The notes below the pieces were generated by a model. It had not been told where the DNA came from. It saw only the letters and a program-made list of their open reading frames with translations, and ran no database searches. A stretch of DNA of 32,000 bases from contig CAZHYN010000006.1 of NCBI GenBank assembly GCA_964536865.1, positions 39,172 through 71,171 of the forward strand, in the 5' to 3' direction. The DNA is from an uncultured Planctomycetia bacterium. GTDB taxonomy: Bacteria > Omnitrophota > Gorgyraeia > Duberdicusellales > 4484-171. Positions 1,643 through 20,880 of the stretch are shown here, piece after piece (positions within the stretch are counted from its first letter, which is position 1; the number at the start of each line of letters is the position of its first letter). Made by a program: the position numbers and the translations under genes.

Positions 1643-1670
1643 TTGCCTAAATATTTTTCTATGTTATAAT
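1643..1670 (+). promoter_or_regulatory. sigma70-like promoter for the tRNA-Phe locus
   Basis: -35 TTGCCT (1643-1648), 16-nt spacer, perfect -10 TATAAT (1665-1670). It lies about 20 nt upstream of the orphan tRNA-Phe 5' half. Confidence 0.5.
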
Positions 1671-1688: not shown

Positions 1689-1724
1689 GTGCCGAGGTAG
1701 CTCAGGAGGTAGAGCGAGGGACTG
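1689..1724 (+). repeat. orphan exact duplicate of the tRNA-Phe 5' half (2 leader nt plus tRNA nt 1-34)
   Basis: The 36 nt at 1689-1724 are identical to 1824-1859. Identity ends after anticodon position 34 (..GACTG). Confidence 0.9.
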
Positions 1725-1725
1725 T

Positions 1726-1773
1726 ATGTGATCTCCGACGTTAGTCGGAGTTGCCCGAAGGGCAAAATCACAT
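1726..1773 (+). other. predicted compact three-way-junction fold immediately after the orphan 5' half
   Basis: Outer stem ATGTGAT (1726-1732) / ATCACAT (1767-1773). Hairpin 1: CTCCGAC (1733-1739) / GTCGGAG (1744-1750), loop GTTA. Hairpin 2: TTGCCC (1751-1756) / GGGCAA (1760-1765), loop GAA. Only 1 unpaired junction nt. Confidence 0.4.
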
Positions 1774-1825
1774 CCAGTTATTACTTTTGCTTAATCGAAA
1801 AACTTTTGATTAAAAATAAAACTGT

Positions 1826-1898
1826 GCCGAGGTAGCTCAGGAGGTAGAGCGAGGGACTGAAAATCCCTGCGTCGGGGGTTCGACTCCCTCCCTCGGCA
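1826..1898 (+). tRNA. tRNA-Phe (anticodon GAA), CCA not encoded
   Basis: Cloverleaf by hand: GCCGAGG-TA-GCTC-AGGAGGTA-GAGC-G-AGGGA-CTGAAAA-TCCCT-GCGTC-GGGGG-TTCGACT-CCCTC-CCTCGGC-A (73 nt). Confidence 0.95.
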
Positions 1899-2025
1899 CT
1901 TTTATCTCTAATTTATAAGTTTATTCTCCTCTCTGTGCGTCTTTAAGTGTTCCTAGGCAATGTCGGATCCAACATATAAATACTTTGGTTTCACCAAAGG
2001 TTGGATACGACTCCCTCCCTCGGCA
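1899..2025 (+). repeat. module Phe-A: variable segment + nested hairpin + exact copy of tRNA-Phe nt 56-73
   Basis: CGACTCCCTCCCTCGGCA at 2008-2025 equals 1881-1898. Outer stem 1967-1973 / 2000-2006, 9-nt 5' internal loop ATATAAATA, inner hairpin 1983-1988 / 1994-1999. Confidence 0.8.
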
Positions 2026-2150
2026 TAGTTTATCCTCACATTCATTAACTTCTTTTTTAAGCTGGAAGTTAGCTCTGAGACGAAAGTATCGTCGGAACAA
2101 ATAAGGGAAAATCGCCTTTGGCGAATTTGTTACGACTCCCTCCCTCGGCA
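2026..2150 (+). repeat. module Phe-B: variable segment + nested hairpin + exact copy of tRNA-Phe nt 56-73
   Basis: CGACTCCCTCCCTCGGCA at 2133-2150. Outer stem AACAAAT (2096-2102) / ATTTGTT (2125-2131), 9-nt internal loop AAGGGAAAA, inner hairpin TCGCC (2112-2116) / GGCGA (2120-2124). Followed by CTTTTTGTTTTT. Confidence 0.8.
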
Positions 2151-2227
2151 CTTTTTGTTTTTAAAGTCAGAATTGGAGATATTTTATTTCTGAAGTTACT
2201 TCCTACTTTATTATCTTATTAGTGTTC

Positions 2228-7087: not shown

Positions 7088-7191
7088 AAGTTAACCCAAA
7101 ATTTGCACCAGAGTTTTGAAAAACTCTCTAATCATTCAAAATGTTATAGTTTACAGTAAAGCTTTACACCAAAAAGATACAAAGGCAAATT

Positions 7192-7244
7192 CCAGCCCAT
7201 TTTTAATGGGCTGGGTTAACCCAGCCCTTTCAAAAGAAAGGGCT
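7192..7244. repeat. three mutually exclusive GC-rich inverted repeats at the 3' end of the GT2 gene
   Basis: Hairpin A: CCAGCCCAT (7192-7200) / ATGGGCTGG (7206-7214). Perfect 20-bp palindrome GGGCTGGGTTAACCCAGCCC (7208-7227). Hairpin C: AGCCCTTTC (7223-7231) / GAAAGGGCT (7236-7244). Confidence 0.6.
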
Positions 7245-8153
7245 TCTCCTTTTTAGACAAATTTTTCTAATGAAAAATTTGGGGTTAAATTTTTCCATCA
7301 ACTCTTTATAAAATTTTGCCTCTTCGTTTTTACCTCTTTTTAATGCGCCCTTTATATAGATGCTACATTTTTTCTTTAGCTCTTCTATAGCTAAATTCCT
7401 TTTTTCCTCATCAAGAGTATTGTTTTCAAGTAATTTTTTTATAGCATATATTCTATATTTATCTAAAGCAGGATACTTTTTTGATTGTTGGTCAGGATGT
7501 CCTCCTTCTTTGATAGTTAAGTACTCAGGAATAAGCTTCACAGGGTATTTAGAAGTTACTCTCAGCCAAAAATCATAATCTTCACATACCGGCATATTTT
7601 CATCAAACTTTCCAATATCTTCAAATATACTTTTGTGAATGCAGGCAGTAGAGATGCTAATGCAACAGAGCCTTAAAGCATATTTAAAAACTATTCCTTG
7701 AGGTTTTTTGTGGTATTTCTTTTGAGGAAGAAGTTTTCCGTTTCTGTACCATATCTCCTCGGTATGGAATATCTTACAATCAGGATATTTTTTTATATAA
7801 CTATAAGTAATTTCTAGTTTATGATGAAGAAATCTATCGTCGGAATCAAGGAAGCAGATATATTTCCCTTTGGATTCGTTTATTCCCTTATTTCGTGCTG
7901 AACCAGGTCCTCGATTTTGCTGATAGAAATAGCGTATAGTTTTTAGGGGATAGCGTTTAGTGAAATCTTCTATTATTTTTTCTGTATTATCTGTAGAGCC
8001 ATCATCTACAATGATTAATTCAAAATCTTCAAAAATTTGATGGAGTACACTTTCTACAGCAATTTTAAGGAAATAGAAGCGGTTGTAAGTAGGGATGATT
8101 ATACTAAAAAACGGCATTTTCATAGGTAATTTTAGAATTATAGAATTTATCAA
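7230..8153 (-). CDS. family 2 glycosyltransferase
   Basis: FSIIIPTYNR, IIVDDGSTD, FLDSDD. The longest ORF starts at a TTG (8153). ATG starts at 8123 or 8117 (MPFFSIIIPTYN) are more likely and would overlap the upstream gene by 20 or 14 nt. Confidence 0.85.
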   Translation of the reverse strand: MINSIILKLPMKMPFFSIIIPTYNRFYFLKIAVESVLHQIFEDFELIIVDDGSTDNTEKIIEDFTKRYPLKTIRYFYQQNRGPGSARNKGINESKGKYICFLDSDDRFLHHKLEITYSYIKKYPDCKIFHTEEIWYRNGKLLPQKKYHKKPQGIVFKYALRLCCISISTACIHKSIFEDIGKFDENMPVCEDYDFWLRVTSKYPVKLIPEYLTIKEGGHPDQQSKKYPALDKYRIYAIKKLLENNTLDEEKRNLAIEELKKKCSIYIKGALKRGKNEEAKFYKELMEKFNPKFFIRKICLKRRSPFF

Positions 8154-11403: not shown

Positions 11404-11458
11404 GCAAAGATAGAAATGCTAATATAATTCAGTTGGCAGAGTAATTCTGTATCTTTGC
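11404..11458 (+). other. leader hairpin abutting tRNA-Thr that encloses a D-arm-like tRNA fragment
   Basis: GCAAAGATA (11404-11412) pairs with TATCTTTGC (11450-11458), and the last 2 nt are tRNA nt 1-2. The loop contains GCTAATA-TA-ATTC-AGTTGGCA-GAGT, which resembles an acceptor 5' strand plus a D arm. Confidence 0.35.
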
Positions 11459-11528
11459 CGGGATAGCTCAGTGGTAGAGCAGGTGCTTCGTAAGCATCAG
11501 GTCGAGAGTTCGAATCTCTCTCCCGGCT
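11457..11528 (+). tRNA. tRNA-Thr (anticodon CGU), CCA not encoded
   Basis: GCCGGGA-TA-GCTC-AGTGGTA-GAGC-A-GGTGC-TTCGTAA-GCATC-AGGTC-GAGAG-TTCGAAT-CTCTC-TCCCGGC-T (72 nt). Confidence 0.93.
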
Positions 11529-11553
11529 TATAAATAGAGATACCAGATAACTC

Positions 11554-11578
11554 AGAGGTTCAAATCCTCTCTCCGGCT
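11554..11578 (+). repeat. orphan diverged tRNA 3' fragment (complete T arm + acceptor 3' strand + discriminator)
   Basis: AGAGG-TTCAAAT-CCTCT-CTCCGGC-T compared with the tRNA-Thr GAGAG-TTCGAAT-CTCTC-TCCCGGC-T. No matching 5' acceptor strand nearby. Ends 11 nt before the MFS start codon. Confidence 0.7.
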
Positions 11579-11589
11579 AAGGAGATGAG

Positions 11590-12849
11590 ATGTTTGTATC
11601 TTACTTTAAGGTCTTAAAAAGGAGAAATTTTTTTCTTCTATGGTTTGGTCAGGTAATTTCTCAATTTGGAGATCGTCTCACCCAGATGGCCCTGATAGGT
11701 TTAGTGTATGAGCTTATGCCTCATTCCTCTATGAGTTTAGCTAAGGTTATGAGTTTACCTGTGTTGGCGGTACTATTAATTTCCCCAGTAGCAGGAGTTT
11801 ATGTAGATAGATGGCAAAAAAGAAAGACTATGTATGTAAGTGATTTCTTAAGAGGAATATGTATAGCCCTTATTTTCATTCTGATTTTTAAGTTTAAAAC
11901 AATGATTTTTATCTACTTCCTTATTTTTCTTTCTTTTTGTGTAGGTAGATTTTTTATCCCTGCTAAGATGGCTATAATTCCTACTCTAGTAGATCAAAAG
12001 GATCTCCTCTTAGCTAACTCATTAGTTTCAATTACTGCTATGATTGCTGCTATTTTAGGTTTTGGTTTAGGGGGGATAATTGTAGAAAAGTTAGGTGTAA
12101 AAGTAGCTTTTTTAATAGATAGTGTGACTTTTTTCCTTTCTTCCTTAGCAGTACTTTCTATGAGGGTACAAGAAAGAGGGTTATTTAGTCCGAAGGATTT
12201 TCTTGATTTAAGTAAGCAAGCTATTGAAGAGGTAAAACGTTCTTTTATATTTGAGATGAAAGAAGGATTAAAGTATCTTCTTAAAAGTAAAGAGACCCGT
12301 TATGCTGCCCAGGTATTTTTTCTTCTTTTTTCCTGTTTAGGCTCTCTTTATGTAGTATTCATTGTTTTTATTCAAAATACCCTTTCTTCAGTTACTTTAG
12401 ATTTAGGATACCTTGCTGTAGGTCTGGGCACAGGGTTATTTGTGGGTTCTTTAATTTATGGAAAGATAGGTAAAAGGTACCCTTTTAAAAAATCAATAAA
12501 TGTATCTTTACTCATCAATAGTATTTATTTAATATCATTTGTTACTGTACTGAAGTTTCACCCCTCTAAATTTTTTGCTTTCTTTTCTTGTTTTCTTCTA
12601 GGAGGATTTTCATCTCCTGTTGTGGTGGGAATTAATGCTTTAATTCATAGTGAAAGTCAAAATATTTTTTGGGGTAGAATTTTTAGTTCTCTGGAAGTAG
12701 TGATGCATTTTGCATTTATAGCTTTTATGTTTTTATCTTCTTATCTAGCAGGATTTTTTTCTCCCTTTACAATAATTGTGAGTGTAGGTATAATTATATT
12801 CTTTTTTTCCTCCTTTAGATTACTTAATGAGCCTAAAGGCAATGATTAG
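11590..12849 (+). CDS. MFS transporter (EntS/MFS_3-like)
   Basis: 419 aa with about 12 predicted TM helices. N-terminus FFLLWFGQVISQFGDRLTQMAL is typical of this MFS subgroup. SD AAGGAG upstream. Confidence 0.8.
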   Translation: MFVSYFKVLKRRNFFLLWFGQVISQFGDRLTQMALIGLVYELMPHSSMSLAKVMSLPVLAVLLISPVAGVYVDRWQKRKTMYVSDFLRGICIALIFILIFKFKTMIFIYFLIFLSFCVGRFFIPAKMAIIPTLVDQKDLLLANSLVSITAMIAAILGFGLGGIIVEKLGVKVAFLIDSVTFFLSSLAVLSMRVQERGLFSPKDFLDLSKQAIEEVKRSFIFEMKEGLKYLLKSKETRYAAQVFFLLFSCLGSLYVVFIVFIQNTLSSVTLDLGYLAVGLGTGLFVGSLIYGKIGKRYPFKKSINVSLLINSIYLISFVTVLKFHPSKFFAFFSCFLLGGFSSPVVVGINALIHSESQNIFWGRIFSSLEVVMHFAFIAFMFLSSYLAGFFSPFTIIVSVGIIIFFFSSFRLLNEPKGND

Positions 12850-18986: not shown

Positions 18987-20258
18987 ATGGCTAAGATAAA
19001 AAGAGTATATGCAAGAGAAATTTTAGACTCTCGGGGCAACCCTACTGTTGAAGTAGAGGTAGTTTTGGATGATGGGAGTTTAGGAGTAGCAGCAGTACCC
19101 AGTGGAGCTTCCAAAGGAGAGCGAGAAGCTTTGGAGTTGAGAGATAATGAGAAGAAGAGATATTTAGGAAAGGGAGTTAAGAAGGCAGTAGATAATGTGA
19201 ATCAAATAATTGCTAAAAAGCTAAAAAGAGAGGAAGCAGACTTTGTTAGGATAGATAAAATTCTTATTGATTTAGATGGGACGAAAAATAAGTCTCATCT
19301 GGGAGCAAATGCCATTTTGGGGGTTTCCTTAGCAGTAGCTAAAGCTTCTGCTGCATCAAAGAGAAAATCTTTATATGAGTTTTTGAATAGAAAAGCGAAT
19401 TTGTTACCCGTACCTTTTATGAATATTTTAAATGGAGGAGTTCATGCTGATAATAATTTAGATATTCAAGAGTTTATGATTGTTCCTTTAGGATTTTCTA
19501 CATTCAGAAGGGCTTTACAGGCAGGTTCTGAGGTTTTTCATACTTTGAAAAAAATTTTGAAGGCAAAAGGACTTTCAGTAAGTGTAGGAGATGAAGGTGG
19601 GTTTGCTCCCAACTTAAAGCATAACGAAGAAGCATTAAAATTAATCCTCTTAGCGATAGAGAAGGCAGGGTATAGACCTTTAAAAGAAGTAGCATTAGCT
19701 TTAGATGTTGCTAGTAGTTCCTTTTTTAAAGGGGACAGATATTTTTTTGAAGAGAAGTTTAGAGACTCTGATTATTTAATTGATTTTTATTCCCGCTTGG
19801 TAAAAAAATACCCTATAGTTAGCATAGAAGATGGTCAAGCGGAGAATGACTGGGAAGGTTGGAAAAAACTTACTGCCCGGTTGGGAGGAAAAATACAGAT
19901 AGTAGGAGATGATATCTTTGTTACCAATAAAGAATTCTTATTGCGGGGGATAAAAGAAAAAGTAGCAAATTCTATTCTTGTAAAAGTAAATCAGATAGGT
20001 ACACTTTCTGAAACTTTGGAAACAACAAAATTAGCGTTAGTTAACAATTACACAGCGATAATTTCTCACCGCTCAGGAGAAACTGAGGATACAACTATAG
20101 CCCACCTGGCAGTAGCTACGGGTTGTGGGCAAATTAAGACAGGGAGTGTGTCTCGAACCGATAGAGTAGCAAAATATAATGAACTCTTAAGAATTGAAGA
20201 GAAGTTGGGCAAAAAGGGAATATATGCGGGTAAAATTATTCAACGTAGATTCGTTTAA
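18987..20258 (+). CDS. eno: enolase
   Basis: [51 protein letters not shown]. Confidence 0.95.
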
Positions 20259-20520
20259 ACTCTGGAGACTCATTATTGGTTTTATCATTCTCTTAATAGG
20301 AGTTGGGATTGTATATTTACCTTCCTATTTGCGTCTTAGGAGATTAAGAAAAGAGAATCAAAGGGTTATAGAAAAGATTGCTCATTTAAAGAAGGAGATA
20401 AAGACCTTAGAGACCGATGTAGAGAAACTTCAAAGTGAGTCATCTCTTTGGGAGAAGTTAGTACGGGAAAAATTAGGGGTAGCGAAAAAAGACGAAATAG
20501 TTATTGACATTAAGGATTAG
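20194..20520 (+). CDS. ftsB: septum formation initiator FtsB/DivIC family
   Basis: One TM helix followed by a coiled coil, and [16 protein letters not shown] at the C-terminus. The in-frame ATG at 20224 is a more likely start, giving less overlap with eno. The eno-ftsB pairing is common in bacteria. Confidence 0.75.
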
Positions 20521-20531
20521 ATTGGTAAAAT
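20504..20531 (+). promoter_or_regulatory. sigma70-like promoter for the initiator tRNA locus
   Basis: -35 TTGACA (20504-20509, inside the ftsB 3' end), 16-nt spacer, extended -10 TGgTAAAAT (20523-20531). Confidence 0.5.
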
Positions 20532-20561: not shown

Positions 20562-20638
<77 letters not shown>

Positions 20639-20767
20639 TTTCTATTAATCTTAATCTATGTTATGTAATCTTTATCTCGCTTACTATGCAAAAGCAATTT
20701 TGGATGCAATAAATAAAAGACTCCGCCTCTGGCGGAGATTGCATACAAATCGGCCCCCCGCAACCAT
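20639..20767 (+). repeat. module fMet-1: variable segment + nested hairpin + exact copy of tRNA-fMet nt 56-76
   Basis: CAAATCGGCCCCCCGCAACCAT at 20746-20767 equals 20618-20639. Outer stem ATGCAAT (20704-20710) / ATTGCAT (20738-20744), 10-nt internal loop AAATAAAAGA, inner hairpin CTCCGCC (20721-20727) / GGCGGAG (20731-20737). Confidence 0.8.
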
Positions 20768-20880
20768 CTAAATTTCTACCCGAGCTTTAAGAGATACTAC
20801 TTTTATATTATAGGCGAGCGTAATTTTGATGTGATAAATATGTGAACGTTTCAACTTAGGGAAGGTTGCACACAAATCAC
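20768..20880 (+). repeat. module fMet-2 (degenerate): keeps the hairpin 3' strand and T-loop part only
   Basis: GTTGCACACAAATC (20865-20878) compared with ATTGCATACAAATC (20738-20751). CAAATC recurs at 20873, 127 nt after 20746. The tRNA acceptor part is absent and only a weaker hairpin remains (20852-20868). Confidence 0.5.

Follow-up and report, generated by a model that had tools for sequence, protein, structure and literature searches.

Four short DNA units, each joining a hairpin core to a copy of part of a neighbouring tRNA gene, lie beside the tRNA-fMet and tRNA-Phe genes in a 32,000-nt stretch of Omnitrophota chromosome (the window: contig CAZHYN010000006.1 of assembly GCA_964536865.1, positions 39,172-71,171, forward strand). 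The units have one anatomy in common; a tetranucleotide at the foot of each hairpin, which we call the handle, covaries with the tRNA loop to which it is complementary; the cores are related across different target tRNAs; the units are patchily distributed among relatives; and in one pair of strains they mark a breakpoint. We read them as a miniature, non-autonomous, site-specific DNA element that inserts into the 7-nt loops of tRNA genes, a reading to which we assign roughly an even chance of being right. The units are named M1 and M2 (Phe T-loop), M3 (fMet T-loop) and M4 (Phe anticodon loop, minus strand). Other loci, those of relatives included, are referred to by codes (L005-L205), and the Omnitrophota DNA compared came to ~170 kb in total.

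Anatomy of the units

The tRNA-Met(CAT) gene at 20562-20638 encodes the bacterial initiator, with its C1xA72 mismatch and an encoded CCA. The segment CAAATCGGCCCCCCGCAACCAT at 20618-20639 recurs downstream as an exact 22-nt repeat at 20746-20767, a spacing of 128 nt, as an earlier, sequence-only reading of this stretch had reported. The hairpin which that reading placed in front of the second copy is also present in full: a 7-bp stem (ATGCAAT 20704-20710 / ATTGCAT 20738-20744), a 10-nt A-rich 5' loop (20711-20720) and an inner 7-bp GC hairpin (20721-20727 / 20731-20737), the core giving z = -6.9 when folded as DNA. What had been missed is that the stem extends into the tRNA-identical block. 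Beyond a G.A mismatch, TTTG at 20699-20702 pairs with CAAA at 20746-20749, which corresponds to tRNA positions 56-59. The features of the locus are as follows.

20504..20531 (+): promoter-like site of tRNA-fMet, TTGACA-16-TAAAAT, TG extended
20562..20638 (+): initiator tRNA-Met(CAT); proposed insertion target, T-loop TTCAAAT (TT / CAAA)
20640..20688 (+): M3 spacer (left part); 5 substitutions relative to L039
20689..20749 (+): M3 core; motif AAAGCAATT, handle 20699-20702, G 20703, A 20745, CAAA 20746-20749
20746..20767 (+): displaced tRNA-fMet copy, C56-CCA plus T (block 2), exact
20768..20880 (+): old, decayed unit; spacer plus degenerate core (TTTG 20825-20828 ... GTTGCAC-A-CAAA 20865-20876; then TCAC, non-tRNA)

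L039, used for comparison here, is a near-identical locus from a Candidatus Omnitrophota metagenome-assembled genome from Guaymas, with 90% DNA identity to the window; the M3 core shows 0 differences from it. The last feature in the list is an older unit in decay, one of the two possibilities that had been offered for it. Its third block, GTTGCACACAAATC at 20865-20878, has its C 127 nt past 20746, and because the whole window, both strands included, should by chance hold only 0.24 matches with <=2 mismatches, a match at the exact period is not fortuitous. The 5' half of the unit (TTTTG-ATGTGAT-AAATATG) resembles M3 and M4, its fold is lost (DNA z = -0.3), and it is not conserved in L039 past 20803.

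At tRNA-Phe, two units follow the gene and a third, M4, precedes it as a mirror image.

1643..1670 (+): putative original tRNA-Phe promoter, TTGCCT-16-TATAAT; now 5' of the 5' remnant
1689..1724 (-): M4 block; displaced tRNA-Phe copy, positions -2 to 34, exact, 36 nt
1721..1778 (-): M4 core; ACTG-G-ATGTGAT-(two hairpins)-ATCACAT-A-CAGT; DNA z = -9.5
1779..1825 (-): M4 spacer; holds the motif GCAAAAGTAAT in common with M3
1826..1899 (+): tRNA-Phe(GAA); T-loop, proposed target of M1 and M2; anticodon loop, proposed target of M4
1900..2025 (+): M1; spacer, core 1962-2011, block 2008-2025; DNA z = -6.3
2026..2155 (+): M2; spacer, core 2091-2136, block 2133-2150 plus CTTTT; DNA z = -5.5

The M1 core is laid out as GTCG-G-ATCCAAC...GTTGGAT-A-CGAC and the M2 core as GTCG-G-AACAAAT...ATTTGTT-A-CGAC. 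M4 keeps the 5' half of tRNA-Phe plus 2 nt (1689-1724), a copy whose nature as a minus-strand unit had gone unnoticed in the sequence-only reading. Its GGA...TAC signature, including the G...A mismatch, is seen on the minus strand only, its block reaches the 5' end of the gene, and the loop that it matches is the bottom strand of the Phe anticodon loop, TTTT / CAGT (anticodon GAA; bottom strand TTTTCAG). The best sigma-70-like promoter for tRNA-Phe, at 1643-1670, stands 5' of the remnant, which is the place expected if M4 inserted into the gene. Folded as RNA, the part of 1689-1825 that lies behind the 5'-half Phe copy forms a strong three-way structure (z = -5.2). On the minus strand at 1983-1999, 2112-2124 and 20721-20737, the inner GC hairpin and, after it, the A-rich loop in complement are scored as an intrinsic terminator, one instance being CTCCGCCAGAGGCGGAG TCTTTTATTT.

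All good units follow the order 5'-(4-nt handle)-G-(A + 6 nt)...(6 nt + T)-A-(C56 N57 N58 N59...), in which the handle is the complement of C56-N59: GTCG/CGAC in M1 and M2, TTTG/CAAA in M3 and ACTG/CAGT in M4. Every target reads T-T / C-N-N-N within a 7-nt loop, and the tRNA-identical block extends to whichever end of the gene lies past the insertion point. The units are 125-144 nt long and have no open reading frame (ORF); their blocks measure 18-36 nt in the window, compared with 19-28 nt in relatives. One signature is common to eight cores, six of which fold as single-stranded DNA to the same topology (z = -4.3 to -9.5). Among the seven cores tabulated, which represent three handle types, handle pairing is Watson-Crick at 28 of 28 positions and the 7-bp stem at 44 of 49, each stem position showing 2-3 kinds of pair. 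When 1.3 Mb was scanned for the strict signature, the only well-paired, clean matches were the four window units and their orthologues, the remaining dozen having imperfect stems, and every short-range direct repeat of at least 18 nt in the Omnitrophota DNA compared lies at a tRNA gene.

Each unit consists of two parts. The right part is the shared core, and the left, made up of block and spacer, is similar to the local trailer found after the last block, with ~75-80% identity over 40-50 nt in L186 and L195; the part corresponding to the M3 spacer is, in relatives, a diverged copy of the tRNA trailer. Cores at different tRNAs are related in sequence to one another, with the handle swapped. M3 and M4, at the fMet T-loop and the Phe anticodon loop, share GCAAAAGYAAT-handle-GGATG and an inner hairpin of the pattern CTCCGNC...GNCGGAGAT, which is found nowhere else in the window; the L186 core, at tRNA-fMet, resembles M1, at tRNA-Phe; and the stem of the L195 unit, at tRNA-Phe, differs from that of M3 at 1 position. 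The common mechanism proposed earlier for the fMet and Phe units is thus borne out by the same architecture, detectably related cores and covariation. The only conserved hairpin is the right-hand one, the spacers having no second hairpin in common. The ends of the units are not inverted repeats, and a classical miniature inverted-repeat transposable element (MITE) is rejected on that account. Searches of Rfam at the gathering threshold or E <= 10 matched tRNAs only and gave no family for the units.

Presence, absence and breakpoints in relatives

The eno-divIC-tRNA-fMet locus was compared with orthologous loci, the homologues of the window enolase being annotated as Omnitrophota or Omnitrophica. 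The unit is present in the window and L039 (enolase identity 100% and 92%), in L186 (period 136; 75%) and in L144 (period 144; 61%). In L179, L181, L183 and L191 (72-74%) there is no unit, and a terminator or a gene follows the tRNA. The identities for L186 and L191 come from a protein search. The distribution is patchy, the unit being absent from 4 of 7 orthologous fMet loci. The core in L144 is degenerate; each copy there has its own terminator after it, and a strong terminator separates the tRNA from the unit.

The sequence-only reading had held that identity tracks the mature 3' end of each tRNA, and this does not survive comparison. The first Phe copy ends at A73, without CCA; in L144, L186 and L195, identity or clear homology passes the tRNA end by 7 to about 50 nt; and M4 keeps a 5' half. 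Since CCA is absent from the first Phe copy, the gene flank is co-duplicated (in L144, L186, L195 and L205) and M4 retains the 5' half, the block is gene DNA that restores the tRNA, and an RNA-derived copy of the mature tRNA is ruled out. A split tRNA with halves pairing in trans is likewise ruled out, positions 35-55 being missing from both partners.

The tRNA-Phe genes of L195 and L205 carry one unit each, with cores of a different subfamily. In L205 the T-loop of tRNA-Phe has mutated and now reads TTCGATT (tetranucleotide CGAT), and the handle is ATCG, a fourth handle type. The displaced copy beside the unit still reads CGAC and has decayed (5 of 19 positions mismatched). Because the handle matches CGAT while the adjacent copy reads CGAC, it follows the loop of the functional tRNA, not that of the neighbouring copy.

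Loci L199 and L201 have identical enolase proteins and are 98.8% identical through the tRNA, spacer and core up to ...GCATACAAA. Directly after the core and its CAAA they diverge, L199 continuing into TCGGCC (block 2) and L201 into GGAGATG, so that the two strains part at the tetranucleotide that pairs with the guide. In L201 the sequence on the right of the core has been replaced by 296 nt of unrelated DNA, which starts inside a zinc-ribbon ORF; homology resumes before a TetR gene. The ORF itself, at 4408-4545 of L201 directly after CAAA, is small and 5'-truncated (...EECLHCGQ...CPYCGEEIEIN*). Whatever lies to the right of an fMet-type core begins with CAAA, in three separate contexts, so that the tetranucleotide must be counted as part of the core. 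The boundary that had been put at C56 alone fits the whole handle-paired C56-N59 better, as L201 passes from core-CAAA into unrelated DNA. Within this lineage the boundaries are not random, as the earlier proposal of a shared element implied; fMet 3' copies in other phyla have other boundaries and designs.

A metagenome scan for TACAAATC....CCCCGCAACCA gave 56 loci, of which only L135 and L144 are members of the family. At 2190-2250 of L203, a locus whose enolase protein is identical to that of L039, tRNA-fMet is reduced to its first 9 nt (CGCGGGGTG), and unrelated sequence makes up the rest of the contig; the cause is a further rearrangement at tRNA-fMet or else an assembly artefact.

A proposed guide-bearing mobile element and its rivals

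The proposed element would insert at T-T / C-N-N-N, either in the T-loop on the sense strand or in the tRNA-Phe anticodon loop on the other strand. Its core would comprise ~10 nt, the 4-nt handle, G, a 7-bp stem around one or two GC hairpins, A and the tetranucleotide, and to the left of the core it would carry a duplicate of the tRNA gene from the loop as far as its end, together with a stretch of trailer. The carried copy would keep the tRNA gene intact, like the attP of a tRNA-integrating island. Lying directly 5' of the hairpin foot, the handle would pair with the loop tetranucleotide and serve as the guide for target choice and cutting, a role modelled on IS200/IS605 TnpA, which uses a guide tetranucleotide on folded single-stranded DNA. 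The left cut would be made wherever the guide matches upstream, that is, within the tRNA loop, and because it would fall there, the excised unit would contain the distal part of the tRNA and the trailer. Reinsertion at the same loop would leave the tRNA intact, and repeated insertion would build tandem arrays in which the newest unit stands beside the tRNA and older ones decay. A left cut set by the guide would account for the variable distal end of identity, the two-part composition, the tandem arrays and the decayed unit at 20768-20880. By analogy, we infer mobility via single-stranded DNA, with chemistry like that of IS200/IS605 and an enzyme acting in trans.

The handle has its nearest parallel in IS608, where the tetranucleotides of cleavage site and target are read through pairing with guides that lie 5' of the hairpin foot (PMC3201880), and target choice in IS200/IS605 is reprogrammable through a change of guide (PMC3201880, PMC5934647). 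Like IS608, the units place a 4-nt guide at the hairpin foot, and here four handle types match four loop tetranucleotides; like IS200/IS605 and the ORF-less palindrome-associated transposable elements (PATEs), they present a hairpin defined by structure, not sequence, for recognition. Unlike in IS200/IS605, the handle simply lengthens the stem by antiparallel pairing, each unit is flanked left and right by the same tetranucleotide, the units carry part of the target gene, and no TnpA was found in the loci compared. The L199-L201 comparison places the unit junction within or after C56-N59, and the long direct repeat could be borne by the element and not be a duplication. A mobile element consisting of the hairpin only, flanked by a long target-site duplication, is disfavoured, since ~10 nt 5' of the handle (GCAAAAGYAAT) are common to M3 and M4 at unrelated loci.

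Integron attC sites are folded single-stranded DNA sites recognised by structure, with variable sequence, paired R''/R' boxes that span the crossover and an arrangement in cassette arrays. The paired box in our units is target-specific, unlike that of attC, and attC was rejected as an identity for them: the AAC...GTT core is not present, the conserved bases being G-G-A...T(C)-A-C, and the window has no integrase, attI or ORF cargo. A likeness to IS91 or Helitrons was also rejected; the defining motifs are not present.

Several observations weigh against a mobile element. Neither the window nor any Omnitrophota locus compared encodes a transposase or recombinase; specifically, no integrase or transposase gene is among those called in the window, and no Y1 HUH TnpA among the genes called in the Omnitrophota DNA as a whole. 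No genome holds a pair of near-identical cores, hence there is no sign of recent bursts. Within one species, no polymorphism between empty and filled sites was observed; none of the Logan contigs from the source species gave an empty site, those near tRNA-Phe ending before its units and one of the two near tRNA-fMet ending inside the tRNA. The units have one clear hairpin each, unlike IS200/IS605 with palindromes at both ends (left end, LE, and right end, RE), and their tetranucleotide is 1 nt (a single A) from the hairpin foot in all units, as against 10 nt (RE) and 19 nt (LE) in IS608. Between the window and L039, the core and block 2 differ at 0 of 69 positions and the flanking non-coding DNA at 10 of 101 (Fisher p = 0.006). 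L195 and L205 (DAGK 71% identical) can be aligned only over the tRNA and the unit, in which two double compensatory changes have preserved the inner hairpins and the spacer and block 2 have diverged. The core thus looks selected in place. A functional element in residence would explain this at least as well as a passive relic of a transposon. The element would persist either by invading its site again and again, in the manner of homing elements, or by having acquired a resident role.

The compensatory changes and the invariant core and block 2 speak for the main rival, a serious one that we rate as less likely than the mobile element: the core would belong to the tRNA transcription unit as a resident cis-acting element under selection, at work either in the trailer or leader RNA or as a structure in the DNA, for example a terminator or an insulator. 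Its origin would be a local duplication or a domesticated insert, its handle would pair with the loop of its own tRNA for processing, folding control or protection, and the tRNA block would be a by-product or mimic. That the handle tracks the T-loop of the functional tRNA and not of the adjacent copy fits this well, the minus-strand inner hairpin of M1-M3 with its A-rich loop resembles an intrinsic terminator, which at tRNA-Phe faces the convergent DAGK gene, and E. coli rttR offers a precedent for a functional tRNA trailer, as does 3'ETS-leuZ. A cis-acting role is harder to reconcile with the absence of the unit from 4 of 7 orthologous fMet loci, with an inconsistent transcription context (in L144 a strong terminator intervenes between tRNA and unit), with the degenerate state of the L144 core and of the old unit, and with the lack of any matching Rfam family. 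M4 moreover has a polarity opposite to that of its tRNA and retains the strand-specific G.A signature, and for related cores to stand at different tRNAs with their handles swapped, they must have been copied from one locus to another.

Two further explanations appeal to familiar processes. The units could be attL/attR scars of tyrosine-integrase prophages or islands that once occupied T-loop or anticodon-loop sublocations and were later deleted, which we think improbable. Williams, in 2002, reportedly took identity blocks from loop to gene end as an att signature. Islands and prophages that integrate at tRNA genes insert in a loop, supply the displaced part of the tRNA and, on serial insertion, give tandem repeats (PMC9897764). 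The identity block of our units, from tRNA loop to gene end, is the classical att signature (PMC9897764), and many other phyla have C56-to-CCA copies of tRNA-fMet. The likeness consists in the direct repeat of a tRNA segment, from loop to gene end, that flanks the unit; the units nevertheless differ from such islands in being ~130 nt instead of 9-120 kb, with no integrase and no cargo, in having a covarying hairpin in place of conserved arm and core binding sites, and in that one of them displaces the 5' half of its tRNA. Scars would not be expected to be 125-144 nt units with a conserved hairpin architecture and covariation, as opposed to conserved protein-binding sequence, and random deletion of islands should not yield the same structure eight times. 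No int gene lies nearby, and viral contigs scanned for the fMet and Phe junctions gave 0 matches and no matching phage attP.

Local tandem duplication only, by slippage or unequal exchange at 4-6-nt microhomology beside a stalling hairpin and without dedicated mobility, would explain why the spacer resembles the native trailer after the last block in L186, L195 and L144, and the order in the window (tRNA, unit, block, old unit, CAAA) is one slippage away from an L201-like state. We give this account little credence, as it leaves unexplained the hairpins with a matching foot beside three tRNA loops and on both strands (chance ~1/256 each), the homologous cores with swapped handles at different tRNAs and the constant TT / C loop boundaries.

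Very improbable, finally, is a guide RNA for a TnpB/Cas12-like or other RNA-guided protein, in which a scaffold hairpin precedes an 18-36-nt guide identical to the tRNA gene, TTC serves as the target-adjacent motif and TAC protects the unit itself: the scaffold with its 3' 'guide', ~125 nt in all, resembles an omega RNA and a T-to-A difference lies just before the block, yet the stem sequesters the first 4 nt of the 'guide', the intact resident tRNA would be targeted too, the L201 core is followed by non-tRNA DNA, L205 has kept its core beside a decayed block, and no tnpB or iscB gene was found in any locus compared. On this counter-evidence an omega-RNA-like guide was rejected as the principal interpretation.

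Neighbouring elements and related repeats

The window is AT-rich (GC about 0.34) chromosomal DNA with housekeeping genes. An Rnf operon, enolase (18987-20258) and DivIC lie 5' of tRNA-fMet, and a gene for a TPR protein lies 3'. The window has three tRNA genes, Phe (1826-1899), Thr (11457-11528) and fMet (20562-20638). After tRNA-Thr, at 11529-11580, stands a tRNA-like remnant with T-arm AGAGG-TTCAAAT-CCTCT, an acceptor strand, CTCCGGCTA, unlike that of tRNA-Thr, and no hairpin core. It looks like a decayed second tRNA gene, of which the close relatives L199 and L200 have a variant form, and it is absent from L179 and L181.

A classical MITE of ~191 nt lies at 7095-7285, with terminal inverted repeats CCCAAAATTTG...AAAAATTTGGGG and a TTAA duplication on both sides; it is unrelated to the hairpin units. 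Further copies are found in L199 at ~2150-2340 and, in L039 and L199, downstream of the fMet unit. Since the first of these is absent at the same site in L200 and in the window, the MITE has been recently mobile. Other Omnitrophota have a conserved element of ~90 nt, cttcagggtgacagcgaggcaagattaac...gcgtcagagagacaaagtcc, directly 5' of tRNA genes (L186 at ~11595-11686; L195, minus strand, 5' of tRNA-Phe and 3' of its unit; L179, 5' of tRNA-fMet), which has no Rfam match and is absent from the window.

Copies of tRNA-fMet 3' ends that start at C56 are found in many phyla, 45-400 nt past the initiator tRNA gene and built to other designs, and repeats of tRNA 3' ends are a widespread and largely undescribed phenomenon. 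Clostridia-like loci (L147, L148, L163 and L167; also L009, L093 and L168) have units of 131-132 nt in tandem behind tRNA-fMet, at 132, 264 and 528 nt. Each consists of a terminator and a sequence whose 5' portion, TTGCGG-C-GAGGGGA, pairs with the tRNA 3' copy to form an acceptor/T-arm minihelix; L068 has a 98-nt version. In the units behind tRNA-fMet of L005, L023, L047, L063 and L091 (Margulisiibacteriota, Enterousia, Nitrospira and Spirochaetia), an inverted T-loop copy, GGATTTGAAC, stands ~80-110 nt upstream of the C56-CCA copy, and may be a longer 'handle' of the same principle. The Patescibacteria loci L029, L037, L066 and L122 have partial copies also at tRNAs that the search had not selected: 3' copies start at T54 or after TTC, 50-125 nt downstream, with small GC hairpins before them, and 5' copies of 34-35 nt end in the anticodon loop, 49-97 nt upstream.

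The closest described analogue, by analogy only, is the set of E. coli tyrT/tyrV repeats (rttR small RNA, tpr; Rfam RtT). At tyrT (E. coli locus L198), ~178-nt tandem units 3' of the tRNA each end, as ours do, in the tRNA 3' end from the T-loop onward (AATCCTTCCCCCACCACCA) plus trailer. Unlike ours, they hold tRNA-like inverted and direct T-arm pieces, have their boundary at A58 and lack the handle-G-stem...stem-A design; the Rfam RtT model (RF00391) has no match in the window at the gathering threshold or E <= 10. Literature searches found no description of units like those reported here. Tentatively, they may form a new class, that of single-hairpin, guide-bearing homing elements for tRNA-gene loops or a domesticated descendant of such elements, mobilised by an enzyme other than IS200/IS605 TnpA and perhaps related in principle to the repeats terminated by tRNA 3' ends in other phyla, including those of E. 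coli tyrT.

In practice, such units break metagenome assemblies at tRNA genes, and they can be mis-called as tRNA fragments or att sites. If the mobile-element reading is true, they would be a new and very small kind of site-specific element, which joins guide-based reading of the target on folded DNA with 'safe-harbour' insertion in tRNA genes, the gene being restored. The 4-nt handle can be read from the sequence, which makes the target rule testable and possibly reprogrammable. The element would also supply a concrete mechanism for short repeat units that end in a tRNA 3' end, a puzzle since the E. coli tyrT repeats.

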